A stretch of DNA of 64,000 bases, taken from positions 18,064 to 82,063 of IMG/VR virus record IMGVR_UViG_3300024346_010589. The stretch is one strand, 5' to 3'. Origin of the DNA: a virus. The first letter of the stretch is position 1; every line of letters starts with the position of its first letter. The notes beneath the pieces are model-generated. The model did no database searches, was not told where the DNA came from, and saw nothing but the letters and a program-made list of their open reading frames with translations. Shown here one piece after another: positions 1 through 20,539 of the stretch. The position numbers and the translations under genes are program-made.

Positions 1-812
1 ACGCAGAACTCATTAAATCGACTAAAGTTCTTGAATAGAAAATTAGTCTCCTGTAGTAAATAGAAATCAACAAGAGCTTCTTTGGCTATTTTTGTCTTAC
101 CGTAAACTTCTTCTAATTTTAACTGCTCCTCCGTTGAGCCTTCTCCTATTTCGTGGCCGGTGCCGCAACCCGGAGGGGCAAAATACCTATCTATTGAAAT
201 AGTATTTGGAAATTGATCCTTGAATATATCCACGAATTTGCTCGAATCAGAAGCTATAAAAAATTTATAATCCTTGCAGGATTTCAAAAAAGCACGAGGA
301 GCGTTAAAGAGTATATCGTCGATCTTTTCTTTATAAAACAATACGGCATCCTTCATTGGGCGAGCGCCTTCAAATCGACTTTTAACTTCCCCGTTGGACA
401 TTCTGGCGTGAACCCCAACCATGTAATTACCTTTGAATTTTTCCCGCACTATATCCTTGACGGTATTAGTTACTGATTCACTGGGCTTAATTCGAGAAAA
501 CGTGTTGTAGAATAACACGGTATCCTCTTTTGATTTTAAGGGGTTTTTGATTTTTACAGTTTTATTTGTATGTTTTTCTGAATCTTTTTTTAATTGATCT
601 ATAGATTCTTCATTAGTTATAATGTTTATATCGGTATCTATAGAGCAGAAGTATTCATTAAATAGGTTTTTTTCACCTTTGCTAGACCAGTGGCCCCGCA
701 AATCTATAAGCATATCTTGCTTTGAATTCTCGCAATGAATTAATGCATTAGTTAAGTGCCATATGGTGTCGCCCCAGCCAGCATCCCAGGAGAAATAATA
801 ATACTTGCTCAT
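1..812 (-). CDS. NodZ-like alpha-1,6-fucosyltransferase (GT23-like), runs off the left edge; not in the ORF track
   Basis: Manual translation from ATG at 812 (ATGA overlap with the upstream stop): MSKYYYFSWDAGWGDTIWHLTNALIHC..MLIDLRG..NLFNEYF...GNYMVGVHARMSNGE...KFFIASDSSKFV..FPNTISIDRYF...EALVDFYLL. This matches the NodZ pattern (GxGD, IDxRG, GVHxR.xNGE, FxxxDS, ALxDxYLL). Frame is open to position 3. Confidence 0.8.
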   Translation of the reverse strand, partial: MSKYYYFSWDAGWGDTIWHLTNALIHCENSKQDMLIDLRGHWSSKGEKNLFNEYFCSIDTDINIITNEESIDQLKKDSEKHTNKTVKIKNPLKSKEDTVLFYNTFSRIKPSESVTNTVKDIVREKFKGNYMVGVHARMSNGEVKSRFEGARPMKDAVLFYKEKIDDILFNAPRAFLKSCKDYKFFIASDSSKFVDIFKDQFPNTISIDRYFAPPGCGTGHEIGEGSTEEQLKLEEVYGKTKIAKEALVDFYLLQETNFLFKNFSRFNEFC

Positions 813-1615
813 AATATGATTTTCTCACTGCCATATTTATTAAACATTTCTTGATAATTTGGTATTTTACCATAGGCTTTTTTGCCGAATACTCTTCTGT
901 CTGTAGATAGGAAGTTCTCTACGTTGTTTTGATCTATTTCTATGTCTAGGTAGTTTACGATCTTGTCGAACTGAACTAATCTTTCCTCGTAGGTTGATAA
1001 GCCATAAAGATCTTCGTATTTGGAGACGATACTTTCGGGAGGAAGCAATTCGTGGTAGTGGGGTAGGTATTTTTGATACCACGCTACTCTTCTTTTGATT
1101 GGAGCCTCCTCTAGGGAGGTATAGTTAAATGAATCGACTAAACCCTTGTTCTCTTTGTTTTCTCCAAGCTGCCACACTTGAACTTGATTGGCAAGCTGCC
1201 AGGAAATAGCGGGGTAGAATGCGCTCTCCCTGTACTGGAAGATTATTTTTATTCCATGAGCTTGGCAGTAGCAGATAAAGTTTTCGTTCCCCTCTTCCGA
1301 AGAAGTACACCACACATGCTTGACCCCGTCAAATGTGCAAAATAATGAGTCTAGGAAATCCCACAGTTTATCGTTATCTTCTGCAATGTTGTTAAACTTA
1401 TTAAAGTATGGTATGTTTTTGGAGGCAGGCAAGTTGTCTGGAATCATTTTGTGTTGCTTGATAATTTCAGCATACCTAGGGTTGTGATCAAGATCTCCAG
1501 TCAACGAAGAAAGTGGCTCGTGCACAATTCTATCGTTTTTGTTGAGCGCAGAAATCAGACTAGTTGTTCCAGCCCGTTCCTGACCAAATATAACAAATTT
1601 AGAATCCATAACCAA
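809..1615 (-). CDS. Sulfotransferase, NodH/Stf0-like
   Basis: N-terminal FVIFGQERAGTTSL is a PAPS 5'-PSB loop, followed by HEP, IIFQYRE..AISW (3'-PB) and YEDL. Likely start is the ATG at 1609. Confidence 0.7.
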   Translation of the reverse strand: MVMDSKFVIFGQERAGTTSLISALNKNDRIVHEPLSSLTGDLDHNPRYAEIIKQHKMIPDNLPASKNIPYFNKFNNIAEDNDKLWDFLDSLFCTFDGVKHVWCTSSEEGNENFICYCQAHGIKIIFQYRESAFYPAISWQLANQVQVWQLGENKENKGLVDSFNYTSLEEAPIKRRVAWYQKYLPHYHELLPPESIVSKYEDLYGLSTYEERLVQFDKIVNYLDIEIDQNNVENFLSTDRRVFGKKAYGKIPNYQEMFNKYGSEKIIL

Positions 1616-2285
1616 AGTAATCTAAATCACGAACGAAATGATCTTCTATATATTCACGACTGTAATCAGAGTAGTAATCTCTGTAGCTCTTTTTCTTTTT
1701 ATATTCGGAACTGCTATTTTTTCGCCAGTCATCGAACCCGGAGGAGCTACTAAACCCAAAAACATCTTTTAATGCATAAAGGCATCCCTCTATGTTTTCC
1801 ATTTTATAAAACTTATCAATAGCAATATCTCCATTAATTTTTATGCGGTCAACATAGTTTTCGTAATATCCAGCGTGGAATTTTAGAATAGCTTTTTCTT
1901 CGTAGGCGTATTTGATAAAACCATCAAAGTCATCAGACATATAATACTGGTGAAATTTCTGAACATAAGGCATCATTGGTGATTCTATATTGTTTTCAAC
2001 AAAATAATCAAACTTCCATCCACCAAGATAAGAAAACATTGATACGACTCTATCAAATGGATTACGAACAACTGTGAACTTGAAGTAATCTTCGTAATCT
2101 GGCACGTCTTGCGCGATAGCATTAAGAGCTCTTTCGCAGGTCACGTGATATTTGTCATCATAATCCTGCTGGTTTTGGTTCTTTGCATAATCTGACTCTA
2201 TGTTAGAAAGCAAATAATGCTTTACAAAAGTTCCTGCAGACTTGGGTATGTGAACGTATATAAATTTATGTTCGTGACTATACAT
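1599..2285 (-). CDS. Carbohydrate sulfotransferase (Sulfotransfer_2 family)
   Basis: FIYVHIPKSAGT, FKFTVVRNPFDRVVSMF and C-terminal DLDYFGYGF. Confidence 0.85.
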   Translation of the reverse strand: MYSHEHKFIYVHIPKSAGTFVKHYLLSNIESDYAKNQNQQDYDDKYHVTCERALNAIAQDVPDYEDYFKFTVVRNPFDRVVSMFSYLGGWKFDYFVENNIESPMMPYVQKFHQYYMSDDFDGFIKYAYEEKAILKFHAGYYENYVDRIKINGDIAIDKFYKMENIEGCLYALKDVFGFSSSSGFDDWRKNSSSEYKKKKSYRDYYSDYSREYIEDHFVRDLDYFGYGF

Positions 2286-3129
2286 CGATACGATCCATTA
2301 CTTCTGGATTTTCTAGATTATCTAAAAGGAACTGCTTTCCGTCTTCCCCGCAAAGGTGACATAGATTGAACGCTTTATTGTCTTCTCCTTTTTGAAAGCA
2401 GGCTTGATAGTTCGCGTTCCAGATCCAGTCTAGAGGTTTATGTTCTTGAAGTATGTCTGTTTTTGTATATGCGTATCCGTACAGATCTTGATCGATGAAA
2501 TCTTTTCTCTCCCCCAATACTTCTAAGACTGGATTATCTATAAGTCCATGGCTCTTTAAAAAGTCAACGAAGTTATATTGATCTGGTAATACCTTGGTCA
2601 TTTTTCTTACAACTTCTCTACCCATGACATAACAACCTAAATTTAAATTGTATTTTGGTATATCTCTGTTTGTTTTTTCATTATGCCAGTATACATTTTC
2701 ATCTTCCGGTATGCTTTTTAAGTATTTCTTTAGGAAAATTTCATTCTTCTGCACAACTGCTGGGTGGAATCCGTATCCCATAACAAAATCGTTTTCCTTG
2801 TAGGCTTCAAAAATATCTGTAGCGTCTTTACTGACAACCATATCAAGATCAAGAAGCGCAAACTTATCATAGCTAGTCTTCATGAATTCATGCAAGAATA
2901 AAATCTTAATAAAGGTGCTCTTCTGGTAGAAGCTAAAGTTGTAATCATCTATTTCTTTGAATGCTGGGAAATCATTCATTGAGATAATCTTGAGGTCGCA
3001 ATTTATCTTTGATGCGTATCTCTCTAGGGACTTTAAGCAGTGTGGCACCCACGCTACATCTTGATAGCCTGGATTTGCAAAATCCGTATCAGAGGGTAGG
3101 TTGTTAATAATATATATTACGTTACTCAT
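2278..3129 (-). CDS. GT-A fold glycosyltransferase (GT8/GT34-like)
   Basis: SLERYA, KILFL..YDKFALLDLD (DxD), NLG, DQD, WN and HLCG motifs in the expected order. Confidence 0.65.
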   Translation of the reverse strand: MSNVIYIINNLPSDTDFANPGYQDVAWVPHCLKSLERYASKINCDLKIISMNDFPAFKEIDDYNFSFYQKSTFIKILFLHEFMKTSYDKFALLDLDMVVSKDATDIFEAYKENDFVMGYGFHPAVVQKNEIFLKKYLKSIPEDENVYWHNEKTNRDIPKYNLNLGCYVMGREVVRKMTKVLPDQYNFVDFLKSHGLIDNPVLEVLGERKDFIDQDLYGYAYTKTDILQEHKPLDWIWNANYQACFQKGEDNKAFNLCHLCGEDGKQFLLDNLENPEVMDRIDV

Positions 3130-4055
3130 ATCATGGTTATTTCTAAATCTTCGTCAATCAAGCCCCAGTTGTCTGGGTTCGGGTTGTCTATCATTTTGTT
3201 TCTGATGTCCAGGTCGTTAGTCTTGCGCTCCCCTTCTTGTTGCGCGTGAGGCTGCGTGGTATCGTTAGATGCTCCTTCAGATCTGTCATGATTTTGATGG
3301 TAAAAATCAGCGTCAATTGATAAACATAAATTATATATATCTTCTTTTGCGGCAATACGATTAAGGAACTCTGTATCCATGCTATTCATGTAAACCAGCT
3401 TTTCATTAAACCCTTTGTTCTCAAGGTAGCATTCTCTGTCAACCATCATAACACCAACTGCACCGCCATAAAAAGGAAAAACTTCGCCGTTTGGCATCAA
3501 TCGGCTATAGTGATTATGCTCGTGACAAATATCAACCTTCCTGGATAATTGTTGATCATATATATAATCCCTAAAAACAGAGTGATGAGATTGATCTTCA
3601 CTTAAATTTCTACGACTACAAAACGCCGCCCTTGGCCAGCTCCAACCATAATCTTTAACTTCATACTCATGGTAGAACCAGTCCATAAACCTTTGACCTA
3701 TCAAGGTGTCTTGATCGATTCTCGCAAAATGTTTGCCCTCCATGTTTCTGAATCCAACATTCATTGCGTGAACCTCTGAGAATGGAGAGTCTCCCTGGTG
3801 CCTGTCAGCTATCTCAGGTGACACGGTAACTATTTTAAGTAGACCTTTAGCTTCTGGGACTAATCTAGAGGATATGGACTCCCTTAAAGAGCCGCTACGA
3901 GAGCACCAATCAACCAGTAGGACTTCGGATTGATCAACAACATTATTCTTTGCAATGATTTCACAGGCATGATTAACTGTGTTGACACAACGGCCAACCG
4001 AATCACCATTATAATTATCATTTCTAGAAACTAATACGTAAGATATTCTTTTCAT
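3126..4055 (-). CDS. GT-A fold glycosyltransferase (GT2/GT7-like)
   Basis: ISYVLVSRNDNY, EVLLVDW, AMNVG, RIDQD (DxD), GFNEKL..MDTEF and HQNH. Confidence 0.7.
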   Translation of the reverse strand: MKRISYVLVSRNDNYNGDSVGRCVNTVNHACEIIAKNNVVDQSEVLLVDWCSRSGSLRESISSRLVPEAKGLLKIVTVSPEIADRHQGDSPFSEVHAMNVGFRNMEGKHFARIDQDTLIGQRFMDWFYHEYEVKDYGWSWPRAAFCSRRNLSEDQSHHSVFRDYIYDQQLSRKVDICHEHNHYSRLMPNGEVFPFYGGAVGVMMVDRECYLENKGFNEKLVYMNSMDTEFLNRIAAKEDIYNLCLSIDADFYHQNHDRSEGASNDTTQPHAQQEGERKTNDLDIRNKMIDNPNPDNWGLIDEDLEITMI

Positions 4056-4693
4056 GATCCTGGGACTAATCTTTTAGAGTTAAAACAGAAAACGCGATTT
4101 TGATTAGGCACTGTAACTTGTATACCTCCAATTTCTTTTAACATGTTCATGTGCATAGATCCTGGAGTGGATACGTGCTTTTCAAGATGCTTTAAGCAGT
4201 GAAAATTTATACTATTTCTGTATTGTTTATCTATGTTGTGATTGTATGTATTTGGAACTATGTAAAAAATCTTATTCATCCAGTTAAACGCATCATTTAA
4301 TTTTAAAAGAATATCTTCCGAGTCGGTGACCACAAAGAAATTAGCCTTTCTCGCATTGATTTGAACTTTATTCATTTGCGCGATATAAACATTAATGTCA
4401 CTAACTTTGTCGGCCTCGAGAATAACTCCCCAAGTATGCTCAGTAATCCTTTTATTGATTCTTATTATTTCTTCGATAGCTGTTTCTGGCATAGAGCTAA
4501 GGCTATGAATTTCGTTTTCAAATTTGTAAGATTTGTATTCCATTGTTAGTTCTTTTATTTTGTGTTGTTCAGTGTAGTATTTAAGTGATTGTTCGTAGTT
4601 TAATTCTCTATCTAGGTATTTTAATATTTGAAGGCTTTTATTTTCGTATGCTGTTTTAGCTTTATTTAGTTTTTTTTTAAAATAAGATATCAT
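4052..4693 (-). CDS. Hypothetical protein, possibly a divergent fucosyltransferase-like domain
   Basis: 213-aa ORF coupled to its neighbours. FFVVTDSEDIL resembles fucosyltransferase motif II, but the HxR motif is absent. Confidence 0.45.
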   Translation of the reverse strand: MISYFKKKLNKAKTAYENKSLQILKYLDRELNYEQSLKYYTEQHKIKELTMEYKSYKFENEIHSLSSMPETAIEEIIRINKRITEHTWGVILEADKVSDINVYIAQMNKVQINARKANFFVVTDSEDILLKLNDAFNWMNKIFYIVPNTYNHNIDKQYRNSINFHCLKHLEKHVSTPGSMHMNMLKEIGGIQVTVPNQNRVFCFNSKRLVPGS

Positions 4694-4794
4694 TAAGTTG
4701 GTGGAGCTGGAGGGAGGTCAACCTTATTGACTACCAGTTTTGATAGTTTTTTGACTATTAATTTAGCGGTTTTTTTTATAATTAAAAATGCCAT
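4693..4794 (-). CDS. Candidate 33-aa cationic peptide MAFLIIKKTAKLIVKKLSKLVVNKVDLPPAPPT
   Basis: Manual translation. The stop overlaps the next ATG (TAATG). Below the ORF-track size cut-off. Confidence 0.35.
   Translation of the reverse strand: MAFLIIKKTAKLIVKKLSKLVVNKVDLPPAPPT
4699..4723 (-). pseudogene. tmRNA/tRNA-Ala-like 3' end fragment
   Basis: Minus strand GGTTGACCTCCCTCCAGCTCCACCA resembles a tmRNA 3' end (T-arm 3' half, CAGCTCC acceptor strand, ACCA). The T-stem 5' half is broken and no GGGGCTG 5' end lies nearby. Confidence 0.35.
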
Positions 4795-4912
4795 TGTAAT
4801 CCATAAAGTAAATTAAGCACAGTCAATTATGAATTATTAATTAATTTAAAATCCCAAAGAAATAGAGAAAAATAAAAAATAGTTGAAATCGTACAGAGCA
4901 TCGTTAGTTAGA

Positions 4913-5449
4913 TTACACATTATTGAGTATAAATTTTACTATAATATCTCCCCTTTCTTTTTTGGAGGAGAAGGCCCATAGCCATACATAGCTGTTTCTA
5001 ATGTCAGATATGGTCTTTTCGGTTTTAATTATGCTTGCTTCTATGAATTTAATGTCTGAGAACTTCATTTTATTCAAGTCTATTTTTAAATCTTTAGCTA
5101 TTGAGACTAGTTTATCAATCTTATTTTCTTTTTTTGCCTCTGTTGCTTCTTGGTATGCGTCTAGTTTTTTATCATTATTGGCGACTTTATCTGGGTGAGT
5201 TTCGATTGCTATCTTTCTGTATAAGGATTTAAATTCAGGCGCAACTTCAGGCTCACCCTTCTTTTCTTTATCTTCTTTGAGTTTTTCTAGTGGGTTTTGT
5301 AGGTCGTTTCTACTGCAATAATCACAAACCTCAGAACAAAATATAGGCACTGACTCTTCGTATATAGAGTTAACTTCCGATAACTCGTTATTGAGTTCAG
5401 AACATTTAGCCTTTAGCTTTCTTAGTAGTTTTGATTTATAATCGTCCAA
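4913..5449 (-). CDS. J-domain (DnaJ-like) co-chaperone
   Basis: FKSLYRKIAIETHPDK..AYQEATEA: HPD motif with the basic helix II, flanked by coiled coils. Confidence 0.75.
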   Translation of the reverse strand: MDDYKSKLLRKLKAKCSELNNELSEVNSIYEESVPIFCSEVCDYCSRNDLQNPLEKLKEDKEKKGEPEVAPEFKSLYRKIAIETHPDKVANNDKKLDAYQEATEAKKENKIDKLVSIAKDLKIDLNKMKFSDIKFIEASIIKTEKTISDIRNSYVWLWAFSSKKERGDIIVKFILNNV

Positions 5450-5478
5450 TATACAATATTATAAAATAATATTGATAT

Positions 5479-5730
5479 TTACCCACTACTAATTTTCAAG
5501 AAATCAGAGCCATCTCTCCATACAGCCCCCCTTACCAAGGGGTCAACAGTAGGAATATTATCATAGTCAAGAATCAAATACCCCAAGCTGGCAGAAATCG
5601 AAGAAATACTTGAGCTAGAAATAGATGATGCGGAAACCTGACCTAGGTCAGACACATCACTGTCTAGGTTCTGGAAGATTCCGCTTTCGCCGCTAGTATT
5701 GCTTAATGTGTATAATGGAACTTTTGCCAT
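5479..5730 (-). CDS. Small putative virion-associated protein
   Basis: Ser-rich middle. C-terminal IPTVDPLVRGAVWRDGSDFLKISSG resembles the LPTxDPxxxGxxWxDxxxLKIS motif of phage fibre/decoration proteins. Preceded by GTGTA-N9-ATG. Confidence 0.55.
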   Translation of the reverse strand: MAKVPLYTLSNTSGESGIFQNLDSDVSDLGQVSASSISSSSISSISASLGYLILDYDNIPTVDPLVRGAVWRDGSDFLKISSG

Positions 5731-5744
5731 AATATATATTACAC
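5731..5744 (-). promoter_or_regulatory. GTGTA-N9-ATG motif (candidate phage late promoter); representative copy
   Basis: The same motif and 9-nt spacing occur at 8680, 13488 and 62192. Longer spacing occurs at 11571, 4914, 37059, 60777 and 60819. Confidence 0.6.
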
Positions 5745-5753
5745 GTAAGAATT

Positions 5754-5821
5754 AAGCGCCTTGAAGATGAATATCAGAATCTTGATCAAACAAGATGATA
5801 GGGTGAATCTCCAGGGCGCTT
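5754..5821 (-). ncRNA. Structured RNA hairpin, copy 1 (3' of nrdB)
   Basis: AAGCGCCCTGGAGAT pairs with ATCTTCAAGGCGCTT. An inner TATCA-TCTTG/CAAGA-TGATA helix is present. Related to the element at 11674-11729. Confidence 0.55.
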
Positions 5822-5829
5822 TTTAGAAT

Positions 5830-6843
5830 TTAAAAGTCGTCTTCTAGTGAGCCGCTTTGTTGATACTCGCGGACTCTTCTTTCGAAGAAATTACCCATCG
5901 CCTGCACATCAACAACCTCTCCTAGCCAAGGGAATGGGTTTTTATCGCTAGGGAACCTGTAGTCTAATCCTATAGCTTCTAAGCGTCTATTACCAATGTA
6001 ATGCATATAGTCCACGAACATGTCTGCATTCAACCCAAGTATTCCGGTGGGAAGAACATCTTTTGCATAAGCAATTTCAAGGTCAACTGCTTTTTTAATG
6101 TGTTCAATGAATTCCTCTTGAATTTCTTTAGTCCAAATAGAGGGGTTTTGATCAATTAAAGTATTGATGAGATAAGTTCCAAATGCAATGTGAGAGCTTT
6201 CGTCCCTCAATGTATATTTAATCTGATCAGAAACACCCTGTAATTTATTTTGACGACCAAGCGCAAGAAGCATAGCAAATCCACTAAAGAAAAAAGTACC
6301 TTCGCATATAATCCAGTAGGTCAAGAAGTTTCTTAATATAGCCTGCTTGCCCTCAATGCTAGTTGAGTTGAAGTCATTAGAACTAATATCGTCAGTAATC
6401 TGCATCAAGAAGTCATCCTTAGCTTTAATGCTTGGAACATTTTGATAGGCCGCATAGACCTCGTCAATTTCTAAATCAAGACTATCGCATATGTATACAA
6501 CAGTTAGGTTGTGAAGACTTTCTTCAAAAGCTTGACGCAATATATACTGGCGACACTCAGCGTCTGTAATATAACGAAAAGCGGACAAAAGCAAATTATT
6601 GCCAACCAAAGACTCACTTCCTGCAAAAAATCCAAGACATCGTTTGACAAGTAATTTTTCATCTTCTGTAATTTCATTGTTTTTCCATTGAGCTATATCG
6701 TTTTGCATAGATATTTCAGTGGGCATCCAGTTATTTGCACAGCTTTTAAGGAATAAGTCCCATGCATATTTATGTTTATGGGGCAATATTCTGTTTACCC
6801 CGGCGATATTGTCTGTTAAAAGTTCTCCTGTTTTATCTTTCAT
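5830..6843 (-). CDS. nrdB: Ribonucleotide reductase class I beta subunit, class Ic (R2c)-like
   Basis: NNWMPTEI, FFAGSESLVGNN, QAFEESLH, CEGTFFFSGF, LRDESSH and NFFERRVREYQ. Confidence 0.95.
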   Translation of the reverse strand: MKDKTGELLTDNIAGVNRILPHKHKYAWDLFLKSCANNWMPTEISMQNDIAQWKNNEITEDEKLLVKRCLGFFAGSESLVGNNLLLSAFRYITDAECRQYILRQAFEESLHNLTVVYICDSLDLEIDEVYAAYQNVPSIKAKDDFLMQITDDISSNDFNSTSIEGKQAILRNFLTYWIICEGTFFFSGFAMLLALGRQNKLQGVSDQIKYTLRDESSHIAFGTYLINTLIDQNPSIWTKEIQEEFIEHIKKAVDLEIAYAKDVLPTGILGLNADMFVDYMHYIGNRRLEAIGLDYRFPSDKNPFPWLGEVVDVQAMGNFFERRVREYQQSGSLEDDF

Positions 6844-6882
6844 GTATAGTATAACGAATGCGATTAATAATTAGATCACACA

Positions 6883-6911
6883 ACTATACAACAAAAAACA
6901 AGAAAGGTCAA
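6883..6911 (-). promoter_or_regulatory. sigma70-type promoter of nrdB
   Basis: TTGACC-17 nt-TATAGT about 40 nt upstream of the ATG. Confidence 0.6.
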
Positions 6912-6922
6912 GCAAAAAAAAA

Positions 6923-7246
6923 TCAAGAACGATTCTTAAATCTTTTAATTAACGACGTTAAATAAGAATAAACTATCGGCCAAAAACAAATAACCATAAC
7001 AATAGTTGACAGTATAGAGAAAACTGCAAAAGGAGTATCGTAGTCTATTGAATTGTTTTTATTAAAAAATTTAATTGATTCATTTTTATCTATAACTTGG
7101 TCTTTATTTATATCAGCTTTATTGAAATCATTAATACTTGGTATAACTTGTTGTATGCTTGTCGGGTTATTTGTGTTTTTACTTTTTTTAAATGTAGAAC
7201 AATTAAGCAAAAAAGGGATAATTAAAATTAATAGATATTTTTTCAT
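6923..7246 (-). CDS. Small lipoprotein-like protein with an EF-hand motif and a C-terminal TM helix
   Basis: MKKYLLILIIPFLLNC signal/lipobox-like segment, DINKDQVIDKNE EF-hand loop and hydrophobic FAVFSILSTIVMVICFWPIVY followed by a basic tail. Confidence 0.6.
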   Translation of the reverse strand: MKKYLLILIIPFLLNCSTFKKSKNTNNPTSIQQVIPSINDFNKADINKDQVIDKNESIKFFNKNNSIDYDTPFAVFSILSTIVMVICFWPIVYSYLTSLIKRFKNRS

Positions 7247-7564
7247 TTATAAATTGTCTGATATTTTTTTGAGTCTAGTTATTATGTAGTTTAGGTTTAG
7301 TGCATTTATTCTATCTACAACTATATCTCCTTTTTTGGGATGGATTAATGCGCCAGACTCCAGCTCCCCCTCGTGGAGAACATAGGAGATGAAATCATGA
7401 GCGCCGTTATTCTTCAACCAATTCCAGTACATAGATCTTGTACCCATCTTGCAGGAAAGCAGTACGTTTTCAAAATGAAACACTTTACTATACATAGTCA
7501 CGTCCCTGAAACAGGATATCTCGCTGGGTGGTTCGGATAGAGTTGAATCTATGATTAAATTCAT
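7247..7564 (-). CDS. Hypothetical protein
   Basis: 105-aa ORF tightly packed in the operon; no recognised motif. Confidence 0.6.
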   Translation of the reverse strand: MNLIIDSTLSEPPSEISCFRDVTMYSKVFHFENVLLSCKMGTRSMYWNWLKNNGAHDFISYVLHEGELESGALIHPKKGDIVVDRINALNLNYIITRLKKISDNL

Positions 7565-8670
7565 TAACTAGAGGATATGATCAATGCCAGAATCACAACT
7601 ATTGCGCAAATTATCAATGGTATGTTTTTGCTTTTCTTGGGTTCTGGTTCTACAGGCTCTGGTTCTGGTTCGACAGGCTCTGGTTCTGGTTCTATGGGCT
7701 CTGGTTCAACAGGCTCTGGTTCAACAGGCTCTGGTTCAACAGGCTCTGGCTCTGGTTCTATGGGCTCTGGTTCAACAGGCTCTGGTTCAACAGGCTCTGG
7801 TTCTGGTTCGGGGTCAATTGGTTTTGGGTTAACAAACCCATCCGAAAACTCTACATAGTAAGGGCCAATAGAGTTCATGATAGAGGACTTAAATAAGGAA
7901 TCCTCCATAAAAAAGTAGCCAGAGTTTCCAAAAAATAAACCCCAACTGTTTTGAAATTCCCAGTAAAGCTTGTCGTTTATATACTTCCAACCAATGAGGC
8001 ATACCGCATGGCCACCTGCAACCTCTGATGCTAGGTATTTTTCTGTATCAACAATGCCGTCATAGCCAATGGAAAAAAAGTAATCCCTGACTTTGAATGC
8101 ATACCAAAGTGGCCGGTCAATCACCATCCTTTTAATCTCTTCTGTTTCAGAGCAGGGTATAACGTGGTAGGAGCTAATCTTTTTGAGTCCAGCGTCTTCT
8201 TTTGCTCCTTCTTTGGGGTTACTGGATTCGCTATCTATATATGGCCAAAAGCTTTCAAAGCAGCAACCTTCGTTTATTAATGCGTTAGCAGCACCCCTGA
8301 TTGATGTTCCTGAGTAATCTTCACCGGCCCATGGGTCGTATTTTTTAGCGGTCTTGTATATCCACATAGGGCTTGGCTCTTCGTTCTTGAACGCACTAGC
8401 CGAACCAAGAACAACCCTTCCGCTGTGGCCCACGCATGAACCTATTGACCCTTGGTTAGCGACGCTTACGCATAGTGATCTTCTGGAGAATTCCTTACTG
8501 TTGACACTTTCGGATTTTAAATACTCAGAGACGTGAACCCAATCTCTTTTATCTGCAGGATGTTCAGAAACATTTAATTTTTTTTCTGAAAATTTATTCT
8601 TTTTAACGTATTTAGATACTGGATTGTCTAGTAATAAGGACGCTATCGATTGTATTAGTTTTTTTCTCAT
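7564..8670 (-). CDS. Papain-like (C1) cysteine protease with Pro/Glu linker and C-terminal membrane anchor
   Basis: NQGSIGSC (oxyanion Q, catalytic C), GGHAV (H) and QNSWG..GYF (N), then PEPVE repeats and KKSK plus a hydrophobic tail. Confidence 0.9.
   Translation of the reverse strand: MRKKLIQSIASLLLDNPVSKYVKKNKFSEKKLNVSEHPADKRDWVHVSEYLKSESVNSKEFSRRSLCVSVANQGSIGSCVGHSGRVVLGSASAFKNEEPSPMWIYKTAKKYDPWAGEDYSGTSIRGAANALINEGCCFESFWPYIDSESSNPKEGAKEDAGLKKISSYHVIPCSETEEIKRMVIDRPLWYAFKVRDYFFSIGYDGIVDTEKYLASEVAGGHAVCLIGWKYINDKLYWEFQNSWGLFFGNSGYFFMEDSLFKSSIMNSIGPYYVEFSDGFVNPKPIDPEPEPEPVEPEPVEPEPIEPEPEPVEPEPVEPEPVEPEPIEPEPEPVEPEPEPVEPEPKKSKNIPLIICAIVVILALIISSS
7638..7815. repeat. Coding tandem repeat (15-bp and 6-bp units) encoding PEPVE/PE
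   Basis: Repeated ggttcaacaggctct and ggttct units. Confidence 0.9.
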
Positions 8671-8696
8671 GTATATAAATACACATTAAAGTGCAA

Positions 8697-9119
8697 TTAT
8701 ATACCATCTAAGAGGTTAACTATGTTGGGATCTATCAAGTCTTGGAAGTTTACTAGCTCGTTGATTTTAAACCAACCAAACTCACTATGTTCTTGGCATA
8801 ACTGTGGAACCACTATTTTATTGGACCTATGTATATGAAAGTAAAAATCACAATATTCATCTCTTATTACATCGATAAACTCAATAAATTTAAAGTCTAC
8901 AAATATTTTTGACTCTTCCAGTAATTCTCTTCCAGCGCACTCAATTGGAGTTTCGCCTTCATCTATTGATCCACCGAACACAGACCAGTAACCTCCGTAA
9001 GGATATGACTTTCCGGTAACATAGCACTTTTCTGACCTCTTGGCTAATAGTACCGAATTTTCAAATAGTACAGCAACGCCAGAAGCTCTTCTATTGGCAG
9101 CTTTCACATTCTCCACCAT
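8697..9119 (-). CDS. NUDIX hydrolase
   Basis: Nudix box GGSIDEGETPIECAGRELLEESKI; overlaps the end of nrdA. Confidence 0.9.
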   Translation of the reverse strand: MVENVKAANRRASGVAVLFENSVLLAKRSEKCYVTGKSYPYGGYWSVFGGSIDEGETPIECAGRELLEESKIFVDFKFIEFIDVIRDEYCDFYFHIHRSNKIVVPQLCQEHSEFGWFKINELVNFQDLIDPNIVNLLDGI

Positions 9120-11559
9120 TCTTCATCGCTTCAATACTGCAGGCGGTTTGAGAGCTAGAAGAATTTGAATCTTCGGAGGTCGACTTCTCTACCTTACTGG
9201 CGGCCCTATTCCTTAAATAGTACGTTGTCTTTAGTCCTGATTTCCAGCACTCCATATAAATGTCATTTAAGTACTTCAAGGACGTTGAGTTGTTGTATAA
9301 ATTAAAGCTAATTGCTTGGTCGAGCCATTTTTGCCTAGCTGCGTTGCATTCTATTAACTTGAACATATCCCTGTCAAAGGCGGTTTTGTATTTTTCCTTT
9401 ATCCACTGTGGGATATCGCCATTAAGTAAAGAAAGATCTCCATCAACATCCTTGACTAGCTTTGCCACCTCGGGACTCCACAAGCCTTCGTCTTTCATGT
9501 CATCAATAAAATGCTGGTTAGTGATAAAGAAGTTGCCGCTTTTATTTTCATAAACAAAGAGTACGGAAAAGTTGGGCTCAATGCTTTGCTCTACTCCGTT
9601 AATATAACCTATGGTTGCAGTTGGCGCAATAGCCATAACATTAGAGTTTCTCATACCGAATTCAGAAACATGTCGCCTTGAGATCTCCCACTCGTCTTTC
9701 TTGGTTTCACCATTACCAGATGGCGTTTGGCCCTTGTAGGACATTAGGTTATTGTAGGAATCAATTGGGAAAATATTTTGACTCCATAGTGAGCCTTCAT
9801 AAGTTTCATAGGATCCTCTTTCCTTAGCCAGTATGGAGCTAGCGTATATGGATTGGCAAGAATAAAACTCAAACAATTCATCATTGAATTTAATAGATTC
9901 ATCGCTATCAATATTAATATTTAATTTATGAAGCACGTCGTGTATCGCCATCATGCCTAGACCTATAGGGCGATTTTTCAGATTTGAGTTAGCAGCTTCC
10001 TTTGTTGGATAAAAGTTGATATCAATAACATTATCAAGCATTCTTACAGCTGTATGTATTGTTGATTTCAGTTTATCGTAATTAACAAAATAACCAGACT
10101 TGCCGTGCGTGGACTTCTCCTCCACATGGTTGAGTAGATTTATTGATCCTAAGTTGCATACAGCAGTCTCTCCAATTTCAGTCTTCTCGCCGGATTTATA
10201 TTTAGAGGCTTTAGTGTGGAGTGTTATTTCTGTGCATAGATTACTACTATGGACAACTCCTTCATGCTGATTGGTGTATCTTATATTGCACGGATCCTTG
10301 AAGGTACACCAAGGATGTGATGTCTCAAATAATACCTTGAGCATTTTTTTCCACAACTCTTTTGCTGGGGTTTTTCTGAAGTTTTTAACATTTCCGTCTT
10401 CTGCTGATTGGCACATTGCGTTATACTTATTGTCAAAGTCTTCGCCGAAGGAATCATGTAGACTTACTTCACTATCAATGAGCTTTTCGTTTGGGTCAAA
10501 GAAATACCAATCTTCATTAGCTTCAACTTTCCTCATAAAGATATCTGGAATCCATGAAGCAGTATTCATATCGTGACACCTAAGTCTATCGTCACCAGTA
10601 TTTCTTCTTAAGTTTAAGAAGTCCTCAAAGTCTAAATGCCAAGGTTCTAGGTATGCGCAACCTGCACCTGGGCGCTTTCCGCCTTGGTTTACGGCAACCA
10701 GCAAGTCGTTGTAAATTTTCAACCATGGAATTAAACCTCCAGAAGTTCCATTTGTTCCCTTGATGTGGGAGCCTGAAGACCTAAATGGAGTTACATCAAA
10801 ACCTAAACCACCAGCAAACTTGGATTTTCTAGCTTCTTGCCAGGCCCCATCAAATATACCATCAATACTATCATCAAAAGTATTAAGGTAACAAGAGCTA
10901 AGCTGTGAGTGTGTTGTACCGCTGTTGAATAGTGTGGGAGTAGAGGCTGTGTATAAAAATTGACTGAACAGATTGTAGAACTCTATTGCTTTTTCGTTTT
11001 TATCTTCTTCGTTGATGGCTAGACCCATTGCAACTCTCATCCAGAAAGCTTGAGGAGTTTCCATTATTTTCTTTTCACTTCTTATGAAGTAACGATCAAA
11101 TAGTATCTGGATTCCTAAGTATTTAAACTTCTTGTCTCTGTCTATCTTTAGCGCCTCTGAGAGTTTAGCAAAATCAAATCCAAGTAATCTTTCGTCTAGC
11201 ATTTCCTGCTTTACTAATTTTTTAATGTTCTGTATGAAGCTTTTTCTATATTGTGACTGGAAAGCTTCTGAGTCAACCCCCTCTTTGAATACTTCTTTGT
11301 ATAAGCAGTTTAATAGTAAACCTGCAGCAGCGTAAGAATAGTTTGGCTCTTTTTCTATTTTTTCTCTAGCAGATAAAACCAAAGCTTTGTCTATTTCGAT
11401 AGTAGTTATTTTATCAAATAATTGCAACTGTGCATCTAGTACTATCTCGCTTGGAGAAACGTTGTCTATGTCACTGCACGCTCTTAATGCGCTGGCGTTT
11501 ATTTTATCTACTTCAAATTCTTCTAGGCGGCCGTTTCTTTTCTTAACTTTAATATTCAT
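9091..11559 (-). CDS. nrdA: Ribonucleotide reductase class I alpha subunit with N-terminal ATP cone
   Basis: VKKRNG ATP cone, TPTLFN, LSSCYL, SNLCTEI, CNLGS, APTA, KTTYYLR and C-terminal CESCQ. Confidence 0.97.
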   Translation of the reverse strand: MNIKVKKRNGRLEEFEVDKINASALRACSDIDNVSPSEIVLDAQLQLFDKITTIEIDKALVLSAREKIEKEPNYSYAAAGLLLNCLYKEVFKEGVDSEAFQSQYRKSFIQNIKKLVKQEMLDERLLGFDFAKLSEALKIDRDKKFKYLGIQILFDRYFIRSEKKIMETPQAFWMRVAMGLAINEEDKNEKAIEFYNLFSQFLYTASTPTLFNSGTTHSQLSSCYLNTFDDSIDGIFDGAWQEARKSKFAGGLGFDVTPFRSSGSHIKGTNGTSGGLIPWLKIYNDLLVAVNQGGKRPGAGCAYLEPWHLDFEDFLNLRRNTGDDRLRCHDMNTASWIPDIFMRKVEANEDWYFFDPNEKLIDSEVSLHDSFGEDFDNKYNAMCQSAEDGNVKNFRKTPAKELWKKMLKVLFETSHPWCTFKDPCNIRYTNQHEGVVHSSNLCTEITLHTKASKYKSGEKTEIGETAVCNLGSINLLNHVEEKSTHGKSGYFVNYDKLKSTIHTAVRMLDNVIDINFYPTKEAANSNLKNRPIGLGMMAIHDVLHKLNINIDSDESIKFNDELFEFYSCQSIYASSILAKERGSYETYEGSLWSQNIFPIDSYNNLMSYKGQTPSGNGETKKDEWEISRRHVSEFGMRNSNVMAIAPTATIGYINGVEQSIEPNFSVLFVYENKSGNFFITNQHFIDDMKDEGLWSPEVAKLVKDVDGDLSLLNGDIPQWIKEKYKTAFDRDMFKLIECNAARQKWLDQAISFNLYNNSTSLKYLNDIYMECWKSGLKTTYYLRNRAASKVEKSTSEDSNSSSSQTACSIEAMKNGGECESCQ

Positions 11560-11624
11560 GAAATTGTTTTTACACTAAGGGGTTGTGTTGTTTTATAAAA
11601 AATGTAAGTTTTGCTAAAGAAAAC

Positions 11625-11653
11625 ATACTAACATAAAAAAACGTGTAGATCAA
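11625..11653 (-). promoter_or_regulatory. sigma70-type promoter of nrdA
   Basis: TTGATC-17 nt-TAGTAT with an extended -10 TG. Confidence 0.5.
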
Positions 11654-11673
11654 GTAAAAACGAAAATAATTTA

Positions 11674-11729
11674 TTAACAATAAGAGAACCAAGGATGAAT
11701 GTGGGAATCCCTAGTGTGCTTATTGTTAA
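11674..11729 (-). ncRNA. Structured RNA hairpin, copy 2 (between the ugd-like gene and the nrdA promoter)
   Basis: Perfect 11-bp stem TTAACAATAAG/CTTATTGTTAA, a 3x3 internal loop, a 9-bp stem ACTAGGGAT/ATCCTTGGT with two G-U pairs, and loop TCCCACATTC. Confidence 0.55.
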
Positions 11730-11731
11730 AT

Positions 11732-12589
11732 TTATGAATCGCTATTGTCTACGGCAGAAGTTGAGTTTCCCCAGTCCAGGTCTTTTCTTACGTCTAGATT
11801 AACTGACCATGCTGATTTTAAAAGTTTCGCATCTAACCCATTTTTCTCAAAGGTGGATATTAATGCATTAATGTCTTTTGGAAAGCATGTGCCGCCAAAA
11901 CCTTTGTCTCCGTCGTGACCGGGAACTTGATAGTGGGACTCACCTATTCTTTTGTCGCTAATAACTCCATTAATAATAGAGTCCCAATCTAATCCAAGTT
12001 TATCAATCAGCAAGTGTATCTCATTGAAAAAACTAACCTTGGTAGCAAAGAAACAATTAGCGATATACTTTACAGATTCAGACTCAACGCTTTTCATTAT
12101 AAGGCATGGCACATCAGGGAAATTGTATTTGAATAAGCCAGCAGCTTCCTGTGCGACGTGCTGGTATTTAGTGTAGCCTATTATGTGCCTATCTGCATTA
12201 ATGAAATCTTCTTTTGCTAATTTAGCGGTAAGAAATTCTGGGGAATGGATTATATGTAATTCCGGATGCGCTTCCTGTAGGCTGTCGGTTGTCCCAATTG
12301 GAACAGTTGATTTTATTATGAAGGTGGCGTTAGATCCAATAGATTTAATTTCGCTAAAGCAGGATTCTATAATTGATAGATTGCAGTCATCTCCCATAAC
12401 ATCCCTCATTGGTGTTGGGACGCATATGAAAACAAAGTCCTGAAGTATTACATCTCTAAGCGAGTGAGTCGAGGAGTTTGGATTTTTATCATACACCTTT
12501 ACTTCTTCGGACGAAAATCCGTTGGCGACTGCAGAACCAACGAAGCCATTCCCTATAACTCCGATTTTAATTTGGTCTGTTCTTTTCAA
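11732..12589 (-). CDS. UDP-glucose/GDP-mannose 6-dehydrogenase family, lacking the C-terminal domain
   Basis: GVIGNGFVG, ICVPTP, IKSTVPIG, SPEFL, KYIAN and GFGGTCFPKD; only 285 aa. Confidence 0.88.
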   Translation of the reverse strand: MKRTDQIKIGVIGNGFVGSAVANGFSSEEVKVYDKNPNSSTHSLRDVILQDFVFICVPTPMRDVMGDDCNLSIIESCFSEIKSIGSNATFIIKSTVPIGTTDSLQEAHPELHIIHSPEFLTAKLAKEDFINADRHIIGYTKYQHVAQEAAGLFKYNFPDVPCLIMKSVESESVKYIANCFFATKVSFFNEIHLLIDKLGLDWDSIINGVISDKRIGESHYQVPGHDGDKGFGGTCFPKDINALISTFEKNGLDAKLLKSAWSVNLDVRKDLDWGNSTSAVDNSDS

Positions 12590-13478
12590 TCCAATCTTCT
12601 ATTTTACGAGATGGATTCCATCCGAGCATAGTTTTAGCCTTAGTGTTGTCTGCAAGAGTTTCTCTTGACTCTCCTGGTCTTGCCGGGATATGAACGTGCT
12701 CACCTCCAGTTAATTTAACCAAGTCTAAGACTGAATGATTTGTGCCAGTTCCGAGGTTGAAAAGCTCTCCCACGATTTTCTTGTCATGCGATTCTCCAGC
12801 CAGAAACATCGCCTCGACTATGTCTTTGACATGAGTGTAGTCTCTAGTTTGAAGGCCATCTCCGACAACAGTCATTGCTTCGCCCGATTCTTTTTGCCTA
12901 AAGAATAAGCCGACAACTGGCGCGTAATCTCCAGCTAAAGGCTGACGCTCGCCATAGACGTTAAAGAATCTAAATAGAACAGTTTGTAGCCCAAAAAGTT
13001 TTGTATACATTTTGCAAAGCTCTTCACAGTTAGACTTGCTTACAGAATATGGGTTTAAGCAATCATTCGGCATATCCTCTCTTAGGGGAATTGGGTTTTT
13101 GAGCCCATAGCAAGAAGATGTTCCTGCGAACATTACTTTTTTGCAATCATTTAATCTTGCGGCCTGAAGAACGTTGCAGGTTCCTAGTGAGTTGTTCTTG
13201 ACAGCATCAGCTGGATCCTGTACGCAAATTTGTATCCTGGACCTAGCAGCTAAATGAAAAACCAAGTCAACACCCTTGAAGAGTGGATTAAGTTTCTCAA
13301 AATCACAGATATCTACTTTGTGGTTTTCGCAATCATCTCTCCATGTGAAATTAGAATTTGCTGTGGAGGATTCATCATCAACCACGATAACATCGTGTCC
13401 GGCTTTAAGTAATCTTTCAACAAGATGGCCGCCAATAAATCCGGCACCACCTGTAACTAAACATTTTTTCTTTGACAT
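12567..13478 (-). CDS. NAD-dependent nucleotide-sugar epimerase/dehydratase (extended SDR)
   Basis: TGGAGFIG, HLAA, YSVSK (YxxxK), FNVYG and GDGLQTRDY. Confidence 0.9.
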   Translation of the reverse strand: MSKKKCLVTGGAGFIGGHLVERLLKAGHDVIVVDDESSTANSNFTWRDDCENHKVDICDFEKLNPLFKGVDLVFHLAARSRIQICVQDPADAVKNNSLGTCNVLQAARLNDCKKVMFAGTSSCYGLKNPIPLREDMPNDCLNPYSVSKSNCEELCKMYTKLFGLQTVLFRFFNVYGERQPLAGDYAPVVGLFFRQKESGEAMTVVGDGLQTRDYTHVKDIVEAMFLAGESHDKKIVGELFNLGTGTNHSVLDLVKLTGGEHVHIPARPGESRETLADNTKAKTMLGWNPSRKIEDWIEKNRPN

Positions 13479-13486
13479 AATTAATG

Positions 13487-14452
13487 TTACACTTGATCGC
13501 AGTCAATATTTAAATTTTCTAGATACCATTTGTATGTTTTAACTATCCCATCCTTTAATGTGACTTTTGGCGAAAATCCTTTTGATTTAATTCTTGTGTT
13601 GTCCATTTTTTTTCTAAAAGTTCCGTCCGGCTTAGAGCTGTCAAATACTATTTCTCCATCATAGCCGATTGCGTCTTTGATCAAATGCACTAATTCTAAT
13701 ATCGTAACCTCGTGTTCTGATCCACAATTTATATGGGAAACGCCATCGCTATATATGTCCTCTGCGTTTATGTTCTCCATGCAATGGATAACGCCATCAG
13801 CCAAATCTTCGACATATAAAAATTCACGTAGGGGCTTGCCAGATCCCCATACTTCTATTGATTTATCGCCTTTTTCTTTTGCGCAATGTATTTTGTTTAT
13901 TAAAGCAGGCAGGACATGCGAACTCTTTAGATCAAAATTATCCCTAGGGCCGTATAGATTGCACGGCATTACCGAGTAAAAGTTGCAACCATATTGATCG
14001 TAGAAGCTTTCGCACATTTTGAGCGCCGCTATTTTAGCTATAGCATAGGGCTCATTGGTATGTTCGAGTGGACCGGTTAACAAGTATTCTTCTTTAATTG
14101 GTATGTCTGCATGCTTTGGATATATGCATGAAGAACCTAAGTTGATTAACTTCCTGACTCCGAACTTTTGCGCAGCCTTTATTATTGTTGATGAAATTTG
14201 TAAATTATCATAAAGGAAGTCTGCTCTGTATGTATTGTTGGCCAGAATTCCGCCAACTTTAGCCGCGCAAAGAATTACTGTGTCAATTTTTTCATCCCTA
14301 AAGAAGTCCAAAACCTTATGTTTATTCATTAGGTTCATCTCTTGCCTGGTTCTTGTTACAATATTGGAATAGTTTGAGCGTTGAAGCTTGCCAAGTATAG
14401 AAGAACCGACCATTCCGCGATGGCCAGCTATGAATATTTTTTCTTGCTTCAC
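13487..14452 (-). CDS. fcl: GDP-L-fucose synthase
   Basis: AGHRGMVGS, AAKVGGILAN, LGSSCIYPK, NEPYAIAK, SHVLPAL and WGSGKPLREF. Confidence 0.95.
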   Translation of the reverse strand: MKQEKIFIAGHRGMVGSSILGKLQRSNYSNIVTRTRQEMNLMNKHKVLDFFRDEKIDTVILCAAKVGGILANNTYRADFLYDNLQISSTIIKAAQKFGVRKLINLGSSCIYPKHADIPIKEEYLLTGPLEHTNEPYAIAKIAALKMCESFYDQYGCNFYSVMPCNLYGPRDNFDLKSSHVLPALINKIHCAKEKGDKSIEVWGSGKPLREFLYVEDLADGVIHCMENINAEDIYSDGVSHINCGSEHEVTILELVHLIKDAIGYDGEIVFDSSKPDGTFRKKMDNTRIKSKGFSPKVTLKDGIVKTYKWYLENLNIDCDQV

Positions 14453-15480
14453 TTAGACAATAACGAATAATCGTTATGGTACATCTTAGAGACAAGCCCA
14501 AAGAAGTCTACTTTCCTGACCCAGCCAAGTTCCTTTTCAGCAAGAGAGCAGTCTCCGCAAAGCTTGTGGACTTCAGCTGGCCTGTAGTATTTTGAGCTAA
14601 CCTCAAAGAATAACTTACCCTTTTTTGTGTAAAATTTTTCATTATCATCTTGGCCCTCAGAGTAGAAATCTATTTCTGCGAACTCTAAAGTCTTGGTTAG
14701 GAATTCTCTTACAGTGTGCATTTCCCCGCTACCCAATACGTAATTCTTAGGCTTGTCTTGGTTGAGCATGATCCACACTCCAGACATAAAATCTTCGGCA
14801 TCACTCCAGTCTCTCTTGGCGTCAAGGTTGCCTAGTTGAAGAATAGGTATATCTTTTCCATTTTCTAGAGCAATTTTAATTTTTGCTATACTGTGGCTGA
14901 TTTTTCTGGTTACAAAGTCAAGGCCTCGACGAGTGCCTTCATGATTAAATAGCCAACCCTGTACTGCGTATAAATTGTAAGACTCCCTGTAGACCCTGAC
15001 AATGTGCCTGGCCGCGCACTTGGCGGCACCATAGGGAGATTGTGGTCTTAGTGGGTGGTTCTCATCTTGAGGAACACACACTACATCTCCGAATTCTTCA
15101 GATGATCCAGCATTATAAAATCTGCATTCCGGAGCAAATCTTCTTATGGATTCCATGATATGCAGAACCGCATCAGCATCAGTATCCCATGTCTGGATTG
15201 GGTAATCCCAGCTTCCAGCTACGAAAGATTGAGCTGCAAAATTAATAAAATAGTCTGGCTTAATGTCTAGTATTACATCCCGAATGCTGTGCGCATCATT
15301 GAGGTCCATATTGATTAGCTCAAATCTAGGATTGTCTTCTAGGTGCAAGATATTCTCGTGGTTTTTAACGCTCAGCCTACGTACCGAACCATAAATTTTA
15401 TGATCAGTGTTCTTTAATAAATAGTCAGCCATGTGACTTCCGTCTTGACCTGTTACTCCTGTTATAATTATTTTTTTCAT
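14449..15480 (-). CDS. gmd: GDP-mannose 4,6-dehydratase
   Basis: ITGVTGQDGS, AAQSFV, SSEEFG, SPYGAAK, FNHE, FVTRKI, LGNLDAKRDW and RPAEV. Confidence 0.95.
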   Translation of the reverse strand: MKKIIITGVTGQDGSHMADYLLKNTDHKIYGSVRRLSVKNHENILHLEDNPRFELINMDLNDAHSIRDVILDIKPDYFINFAAQSFVAGSWDYPIQTWDTDADAVLHIMESIRRFAPECRFYNAGSSEEFGDVVCVPQDENHPLRPQSPYGAAKCAARHIVRVYRESYNLYAVQGWLFNHEGTRRGLDFVTRKISHSIAKIKIALENGKDIPILQLGNLDAKRDWSDAEDFMSGVWIMLNQDKPKNYVLGSGEMHTVREFLTKTLEFAEIDFYSEGQDDNEKFYTKKGKLFFEVSSKYYRPAEVHKLCGDCSLAEKELGWVRKVDFFGLVSKMYHNDYSLLSK

Positions 15481-15483
15481 AAA

Positions 15484-15792: not shown

Positions 15793-15808
15793 AGTTGTTG
15801 TTGAGTTA

Positions 15809-17330: not shown

Positions 17331-17336
17331 AAAAAA

Positions 17337-18305: not shown

Positions 18306-18318
18306 ATCAAGTTAAGAG

Positions 18319-19446: not shown

Positions 19447-19450
19447 TGTA

Positions 19451-20329: not shown

Positions 20330-20350
20330 TTTCTTAATTTATGTTATAAT
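20323..20350 (+). promoter_or_regulatory. sigma70-type promoter P1 of the rightward operon
   Basis: TTGACA-16 nt-TATAAT with TGn extended -10; overlaps the start codon of the leftward GT9 gene. Confidence 0.65.
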
Positions 20351-20379
20351 GCTTCAAAAGCTTTAGCTATTGAAGCTAT

Positions 20380-20458: not shown

Positions 20459-20489
20459 AAGCGCGCGCGATTTTTTTCTTTATTTTTGC

Positions 20490-20518: not shown

Positions 20519-20539
20519 ATCATTTATTCTAAATAAAAA

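Follow-up and report, generated by a model that had tools for sequence, protein, structure and literature searches.

Chloroviruses, giant viruses and mycobacteriophages are established cases of glycosylation encoded by the virus itself; chlorovirus PBCV-1 encodes a gmd and a GDP-fucose synthase, and chloroviruses glycosylate their own particles in the cytoplasm. In the Nod factors of NGR234, fucose is tailored by NodZ, NoeI and NoeE. Virion glycosylation was described for mycobacteriophages Che8, Corndog and Myrna (Freeman 2023, as cited in PMC12619734), and genes of the NodZ family were found in cyanophages S-SCSM1, together with gmd and fcl (PMC9602691), and S-SRM01 (ORF303; PMC8557907). A candidate route of fucan synthesis in brown algae, the pathway itself being unproven, combines family-23 glycosyltransferases (GT23) with sulfotransferases (PMC11468063). 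Here we describe three adjacent genes of a tailed phage, encoding a NodZ-like fucosyltransferase, a NodH/Stf0-like sulfotransferase and a second carbohydrate sulfotransferase, and the large glycan island to which they belong. They lie at the start of a 64,000-nt stretch of DNA (“the window”), G000:C1:18064-82063 of the linear 82,063-bp IMG/VR virus record IMGVR_UViG_3300024346_010589 (G000). Positions are those of the window unless preceded by G000 or another handle, and negative ones lie before the window start.

On balance, the three genes, which follow one another and are translationally coupled, are probably part of a glycan assembly line encoded by the phage and located in the cytoplasm. 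The genes (aa, amino acids; ORF, open reading frame; PAPS, 3′-phosphoadenosine-5′-phosphosulfate) are:

Window −51 to 812 (G000:C1:18012-18875; 3–812 within the window), minus strand: GT23/NodZ-like fucosyltransferase, a complete ORF of 287 aa.
809–1609, minus strand: NodH/Stf0-like PAPS-dependent sulfotransferase, 266 aa from the ATG at 1609 (the longest ORF, 809–1615 with a TTG start, has 268 aa).
1599–2285, minus strand: Sulfotransfer_2 carbohydrate sulfotransferase, 228 aa (Pfam PF03567, E 1e-14, 55.7 bits against a cut-off of 22; phrog_3347, E 3.9e-12).

An earlier reading of the window by itself (the original prediction) had proposed these three minus-strand ORFs as a coupled NodZ-like, NodH-like and second carbohydrate sulfotransferase set, and had feared that the first of them was truncated at the window edge. 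That ORF is complete, running 51 nt past the window start, and the Pfam match to Sulfotransfer_2 identifies the third. Since all homologues of the NodH-like protein are 266 aa long, its real start is probably the ATG at 1609; measured from there, the Sulfotransfer_2 and NodH-like genes overlap by 11 nt, and the stop of the NodH-like gene and the start of the NodZ-like gene overlap by 4 nt (ATGA), as translational coupling would have it.

The NodZ motifs seen originally in the edge ORF proved to belong to a GT23 match: Pfam NodZ (PF05830) was reached at 48.2 bits against a gathering cut-off of 28.3 (E 8.7e-13, profile positions 95–258 of 322), and the same family is carried by 20 of the 21 homologue clusters of this protein. 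The solved Bradyrhizobium NodZ (2hhc) was matched at E 5.4e-7 with the single sequence and at E 6.7e-15 with a 19-sequence family profile; no NCBIfam model matched the protein. An AlphaFold2 model (predicted local distance difference test, pLDDT, 82.1; predicted template-modelling score, pTM, 0.84) was compared with solved structures by Foldseek, and ranks 1–5 were NodZ structures of GT-B fold (E 6e-12 to 6e-11, template-modelling score 0.62–0.65), followed by FUT8, POFUT2, plant AtFUT1 and POFUT1.

In 332 NodZ-like proteins, the GDP-binding H175 and S287 (Bradyrhizobium NodZ) and the catalytic R182 and D275 (A. caulinodans NodZ) are near-invariant (bioRxiv 10.64898/2026.10.04.756492). H135 and R137 of the phage protein aligned with the H and R of GVHVRHGNGE, and D249 with the D of ALIDMYLL; all three were invariant across 19 homologues, and N140 was also aligned. 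S264 (NFSRF) was nearly invariant and is the likely counterpart of S287 by position only, the HMMER alignments ending before that residue. According to the same preprint, the catalytic Arg is followed by a His and an Asn specific to NodZ (A. caulinodans H183 and N185), and a Trp of the N-terminal domain (W139, MjNodZ) is needed for long chito-oligosaccharides (bioRxiv 10.64898/2026.10.04.756492). The phage protein reads R137-M138-S139-N140, the Asn being retained and the His replaced at a position that varies among M, C and T in homologues; when 2hhc was aligned with the profile, its corresponding Trp stood opposite the Ser of NPLKSKE, within a low-similarity stretch. With Met for the NodZ-specific His and seemingly Ser (weak alignment) for the chito-oligosaccharide Trp, the protein is classed by the preprint's criteria as a GT23 “NodZ-like” fucosyltransferase and not as a strict NodZ, and its acceptor is probably not a chito-oligosaccharide.

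For the NodH-like protein, exhaustive HMMER searching of 1.84 billion representatives found 91 relatives. R14, G16, R129 and S138 were invariant in 57 aligned family members, and the family consensus N-terminus KFxIFxxARSGSTSL corresponds to the 5′-phosphosulfate loop that binds PAPS, the phage protein having ERAGTTS against the consensus ARSGSTS. Among these 57 members, 35 matched Sulfotransfer_3 (PF13469), 25 Stf0 (PF09037) and 10 Sulfotransfer_1. The family profile matched PDB entry 9vki, “LPS sulfotransferase NodH” (LPS, lipopolysaccharide), at E 1.1e-13, and Stf0 (1tex) at E 5e-3. The protein was modelled by AlphaFold2 with a pLDDT of 96.7, and all 50 matches listed by VIA-align were sulfotransferases, the best being Stf0 1tex (Z 11.5, root-mean-square deviation 3.7, 188 aa), tied with TPST1 and TPST2. 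The NodH/Stf0-type call, originally based on motifs, is thus borne out by the family profile and the predicted fold, which support a place in the NodH/Stf0 branch without a direct family match.

The record encodes two paralogues of the Sulfotransfer_2 enzyme, one immediately following the NodZ-like gene (G000 17373-18011) and the other at G000 5319-5912. The 5′-phosphosulfate-binding motif (5′-PSB, HIPKxAG) and the 3′-phosphate-binding motif (3′-PB, RNPxDRxxS) were invariant in the three paralogues. No NCBIfam model matched any of the three sulfotransferases scanned.

The original prediction had also named gmd and fcl in the window as the supply of GDP-L-fucose, and both genes were identified as such by their top Pfam and NCBIfam matches:

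13487–14452, minus strand: GDP-L-fucose synthase, fcl (NCBIfam GDPFucSynFcl, top match, 436.6 bits, equivalog cut-off 500; Pfam Epimerase, 2e-61).
14449–15480, minus strand: GDP-mannose 4,6-dehydratase, gmd (Pfam GDP_Man_Dehyd, E 5e-102; TIGR01472, top match, 322 bits, cut-off 415).

The equivalog models for the two enzymes were by far their best NCBIfam matches, yet both genes scored somewhat below the strict cut-offs.

The original prediction covered one corner of a larger system. The trio is a small part of a run of 25 minus-strand genes (G000 3758-22756, 19 kb) which overlap or are separated by gaps of at most 8 nt, and which include the two further Sulfotransfer_2 genes and many glycosyltransferase genes. 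By Pfam, the run encodes GT92, two Nucleotid_trans, GT2, GT17 and GT31 (Galactosyl_T) enzymes, two weakly GT8-like ones, two Methyltransf_24/TylF-like enzymes and one fcl/GME-like epimerase. No 19-residue segment reached a Kyte-Doolittle value of 1.6 in any of the 25 genes (maximum 1.49). Upstream of the trio, the run is completed by three genes:

2278–3129, minus strand: probable GT-A glycosyltransferase, GT8-like, 283 aa, same operon (Pfam Glyco_transf_8, E 0.027, under the cut-off).
3126–4055, minus strand: probable GT2-like glycosyltransferase, 309 aa, same operon (no Pfam match).
4052–4693, minus strand: first gene of the overlapping run, 213 aa.

The gene at 2278–3129 adjoins the sulfotransferase gene in every relative examined. 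For the product of 3126–4055, an Atlas feature search (score 0.98) led to viral clusters with Glycos_transf_2 in 82% of their members, a lead only. The product of 4052–4693 carries FFVVTDSED, which resembles fucosyltransferase motif II, and its Atlas neighbours included some clusters with minor shares of NodZ, FUT8_N_cat or O-FucT. It was rejected as a second GT23 enzyme: hhalign against the NodZ-like profile gave a probability of 1.2% and aligned only FFVVTDS with FFIASDS.

A 576-aa GHKL-type ATPase is encoded amid the glycan genes (G000:C1:13578-15308, window −4485 to −2755); its matches to HATPase_c_3/HATPase_c are weak, and relatives retain it. An 83-aa ORF (5479–5730, minus strand) immediately upstream of the operon is likewise conserved in relatives; it combines a Ser-rich tract, SASSISSSSISSISAS, with the C-terminal motif DPLVxGAVWRDxxxFLKISxG and may be a glycan acceptor or a fibre module. 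Beyond the run, the window encodes ribonucleotide reductase, a Nudix protein and a papain-like protease; in the last (7564–8670, minus strand), the papain-family (C1) protease part precedes a long (PEPEPV)n repeat, and the C-terminal tail is hydrophobic. There follow Ugd, a GalE-like epimerase, fcl, gmd, a DegT-type aminotransferase and two phrog_2170 glycosyltransferases, and the sugar genes extend to tail-fibre-sized ORFs, a tail-tip protein and a 4033-aa ORF. In total, at least nine glycosyltransferases, four sulfotransferases (one NodH-like and three Sulfotransfer_2) and two methyltransferases were counted.

The NodZ-like gene was found in at least eight IMG/VR loci at 63–99% identity. The order Sulfotransfer_2, NodH-like, NodZ-like was kept in the IMG/VR relatives, the genes being directly adjacent in L003 and L008; in L005 and L007 GT92 and other genes stand between the NodH-like and NodZ-like genes, and an insertion is also present in a related 210,818-bp contig (G006:C4). 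Up to six unrelated genes were inserted in such relatives. Mosaicism was compared between L003, L005 and L007 and the record (window about −6000 to 1615). In one relative with flanks 96–98% identical, the NodH-like protein was only 84% identical, one glycosyltransferase was a 45%-identical allele and another was missing. These comparisons mark the island as a cassette-shuffling hotspot. Near-identical sequence also occurs in other marine or seawater metagenomes, in 14 runs or more drawn from many studies.

The record is part of the genome of a tailed phage and encodes a phrog_18 minor tail protein of the lambda tail-tip type (PHROG scan, E 1.8e-58), giant fibre-sized ORFs and the 4033-aa ORF, which is tape-measure-like. 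In the 210,818-bp contig (L016–L026), which was binned in a Cellvibrionales metagenome-assembled genome (MAG), the whole arrangement is present at 60–90% protein identity. Because both of its ends match adjacent genes of our record, this contig looks like a circularly permuted complete phage genome; it is rich in frameshifts, which split the NodZ-like and tape-measure-like genes. Further contigs bearing homologues are 186–222 kb long. The lineage is therefore probably one of jumbo phages with genomes of about 200 kb, of which the 82-kb record is less than half, so that its CheckV completeness rating (61%) is probably too high.

Homologue-bearing contigs were binned in one Flavobacteriaceae and one Cellvibrionales MAG, as might be expected if the island were passenger or mis-assembled host DNA, or a set of decayed copies without function. 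We consider this highly improbable, as the same phage genes flank the island in at least eight IMG/VR records and in the circularly permuted 211-kb phage-like contig, the GC content of the record (37%) is uniform along the sequence, and the ORFs are intact, with cofactor-site residues invariant across homologues at 43–98% identity. Shine-Dalgarno-like motifs precede 9% of the ORFs of the record versus 10% in shuffled upstream regions, i.e. chance level; this rarity, the GC content and the one Flavobacteriaceae bin label hint, and no more than hint, that the host is probably one of the marine Bacteroidota.

Moraphages were described as having contractile tails and no recognisable tape measure (PMC12619734), and that lineage was rejected as the group of this phage, which has a lambda-type tail-tip protein and the 4033-aa tape-measure-like ORF. 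Nine head or tail candidate ORFs of the 211-kb relative and one window ORF gave no PHROG match. In tblastn searches of 50,697 GenBank phage records, the NodZ-like protein had zero matches and the two sulfotransferases marginal ones only, to uncultured megaphage records; a conserved structural-region protein likewise had no match in GenBank phage records. With these searches empty or marginal, no cultured relative was found.

The original prediction had suggested looking for PAPS-synthesis genes elsewhere in the genome, and a lead came from the 211-kb relative, in which an APS-kinase match of 45.5 bits was found (APS, adenosine 5′-phosphosulfate). The copy there is frameshifted (L014:1475-2275 in G006:C4); an intact copy (L027:2962-3798) encodes 278 aa, in which an APS-kinase-like P-loop domain is fused to a domain resembling NMN-adenylyltransferase (NMNAT). 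The fusion scored 45.8 bits with Pfam APS_kinase (cut-off 21.1) and 43 bits with TIGR00455 (cut-off 138.7); the best PDB and NCBIfam matches of the kinase-like domain were all APS kinases, at scores far under the equivalog cut-offs. A DUF1501 gene (sulfatase/phosphatase superfamily) adjoins the fusion gene. At least 144 IMG/VR contigs carry the fusion, and two of them (100,970 and 105,904 bp) equal in size contigs that bear NodH-like and NodZ-like homologues, a co-occurrence judged from size only. As a lead, the fusion could supply PAPS, or could serve NAD salvage.

Enzyme families, cofactor-site residues, gene coupling, solubility and conservation with cassette shuffling are established here, and from them a pathway can be proposed. 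Phage Gmd and Fcl would convert host GDP-mannose to GDP-L-fucose, and the NodZ-like GT23 enzyme would transfer the fucose to a sugar acceptor. The NodH/Stf0-like and Sulfotransfer_2 enzymes (up to four) would transfer sulfate from PAPS to hydroxyls of the growing glycan, the PAPS coming from the host or possibly from the APS-kinase-like gene of complete relatives. Methyl groups would be added by the two TylF-like enzymes, which are O-methyltransferase-like, and the backbone would be built by the other glycosyltransferases, of which the surrounding ~45 kb encodes at least nine, along with two more sulfotransferases and further nucleotide-sugar enzymes. The product would be a sulfated, methylated, fucose-containing hetero-oligosaccharide. 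The original prediction had placed a sulfated, fucosylated glycan on the surface of the virion or of the host; the enzymes and the donor supply that it called for are in place, and we infer from the genes a common product and its target, along with the enzyme activities and the acceptor.

No ORF with two or more transmembrane-like segments was found in the 82-kb record, and none with more than two in the 211-kb relative. Consequently, no flippase, polymerase, exporter or polyprenyl-phosphate transferase is apparent in the record. Since the enzymes are soluble and exporter-type genes are lacking, assembly on a cytoplasmic acceptor, namely phage virion proteins, is favoured over assembly on the host envelope. 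Glycosylation of the virion is accordingly ranked first among the destinations, at somewhat less than an even chance. Tentatively, O-glycosylation in the cytoplasm of the host may give the virion a sulfated and methylated glycan with fucose in it, carried by fibres, capsid or the Ser-rich 83-aa protein, and cassettes may be swapped among close relatives to vary the coat. If the host is a polysaccharide-degrading member of the Bacteroidota, a fucoidan-like coat could shield the virion or bait glycan-binding proteins of the host surface.

The host envelope, reached through host exporters, ranks second as a destination, with a chance nearer to one in three than to one in two. Lipid-linked glycans of the host, whether of O-antigen, capsule or envelope glycoproteins, might be made or modified by the enzymes and then exported by host flippases or ABC transporters; such remodelling could, for example, block superinfection or keep progeny from sticking to debris. 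The “cell wall/LPS” clusters of cyanophages that contain gmd, fcl and NodZ were read in this way (PMC9602691), 9vki, a NodH-type enzyme, was deposited as an LPS sulfotransferase, and the shuffling of cassettes among close relatives resembles the diversification of O-antigen loci. No initiating transferase, flippase, polymerase, exporter or other membrane protein, however, is apparent in the island or in the 211-kb relative, and some 45 kb of a probably lytic jumbo phage genome would be a large outlay for a cell about to lyse. This account of host-surface remodelling is a possible one and, taken as a whole, rather doubtful.

Other targets come last and share a minor part of the probability. NodZ and NodH themselves act on a small lipo-oligosaccharide. 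DNA, too, can be hypermodified with glycans by glycosyltransferases of phages (Pyle 2024, as cited in PMC12619734). The target might be phage DNA hypermodified in this way, or a small molecule that is either soluble or a lipo-oligosaccharide. More than ten glycosyltransferases and four sulfotransferases go far beyond known DNA-glycosylation systems, though, and the residue tied to chito-oligosaccharide binding is seemingly absent (weak alignment); these two particular targets are improbable.

Several points weigh against the assembly line and against virion glycosylation as its purpose. The NodH-like protein itself had no Pfam match at E ≤ 1, no NCBIfam match and no single-sequence PDB match. 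Genes of the APS kinase, ATP sulfurylase and PAPS_reduct/CysD families were not found in the 82-kb record, which is a fragment, nor was an APS kinase found in five related fragments; negatives drawn from fragments do not prove that the genes are lacking. No Thr-rich or Ser-rich acceptor tract was found in the large structural proteins, the sole such tract in the record being that of the 83-aa ORF. The absence of export genes also fits the use of host exporters, and further genes may lie outside the fragment. Contigs from metatranscriptome libraries of three studies covered most of positions 1–4700 at 90–99% identity (943–1099 uncovered), which, as DNA carry-over is possible, does not prove transcription, its strand or its level.

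Provided that the enzymes are active, sulfated fucose glycans would be produced by jumbo phages that are abundant in the sea and uncultured, a chemistry elsewhere linked to the fucoidans of algae and the glycosaminoglycans of animals. Phage-host recognition, the stability and stickiness of virions in seawater and the marine pool of sulfated polysaccharides could all be affected, and if the glycan is carried by the virion, this would be the first bacterial virus to bear a sulfated one. Enzyme discovery may profit too, the GT23 enzymes and sulfotransferases being small and soluble. The trio alone is modest; its value is as a well-verified entry point to the larger island. In the searchable literature, neither a phage-made sulfated glycan nor a phage NodH/Stf0-like enzyme coupled to a GT23 enzyme was found; phrog_3347 shows that Sulfotransfer_2-like genes do occur in phage genomes.

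Compared with rhizobial NodZ (2hhc and 3siw), the phage fucosyltransferase shares the Pfam family, the GT-B fold, an N-terminal GxGD, motif I of the NodZ type (HxRxxNGE, not the FUT8-type HVRRTDK), motif II (FFxASDS) and motif III (ALxDFYLL) with the catalytic Asp; it differs in being ~35 aa shorter, in having only 14–16% identity and in Met138, which replaces the NodZ-specific His. The analogy to Nod factors, i.e. to enzymes acting on oligomers of N-acetylglucosamine, holds for the enzyme families and is not supported beyond the family level (14–16% identity, His to Met, Trp weakly opposite Ser). With NodH/Stf0 enzymes (9vki, 1tex; PF09037, PF13469), the phage sulfotransferase shares the 5′-PSB P-loop, the 3′-PB Arg and Ser, a Glu-Pro after strand 2, the fold and the form of a small soluble protein of ~265 aa; it differs in scoring below every Pfam and NCBIfam model, the link running through the family profile only. 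The systems of NGR234 and of brown algae resemble the island in their combination of enzyme families (GT23, sulfotransferases and O-methyltransferases), with no orthology.

Cytoplasmic virion glycosylation in mycobacteriophages and PBCV-1 likewise employs soluble virus-encoded glycosyltransferases and methyltransferases and no exporter; glycosylated virion proteins are known there, whereas the present system is known from its genes. To our knowledge, no sulfation has been described in those systems. The closest counterparts among phages are the cell-wall/LPS-like clusters of the T4-like cyanophages S-SCSM1 and S-SRM01, which share phage-encoded gmd, fcl, a NodZ-family gene and several other glycosyltransferases with the island, and since NodZ with gmd and fcl has been published for cyanophages, the fucose part is not new in kind. 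Sulfotransferases go unmentioned in the accounts of both clusters (PMC9602691 and PMC8557907), and the present phage belongs to another lineage and carries a larger island.

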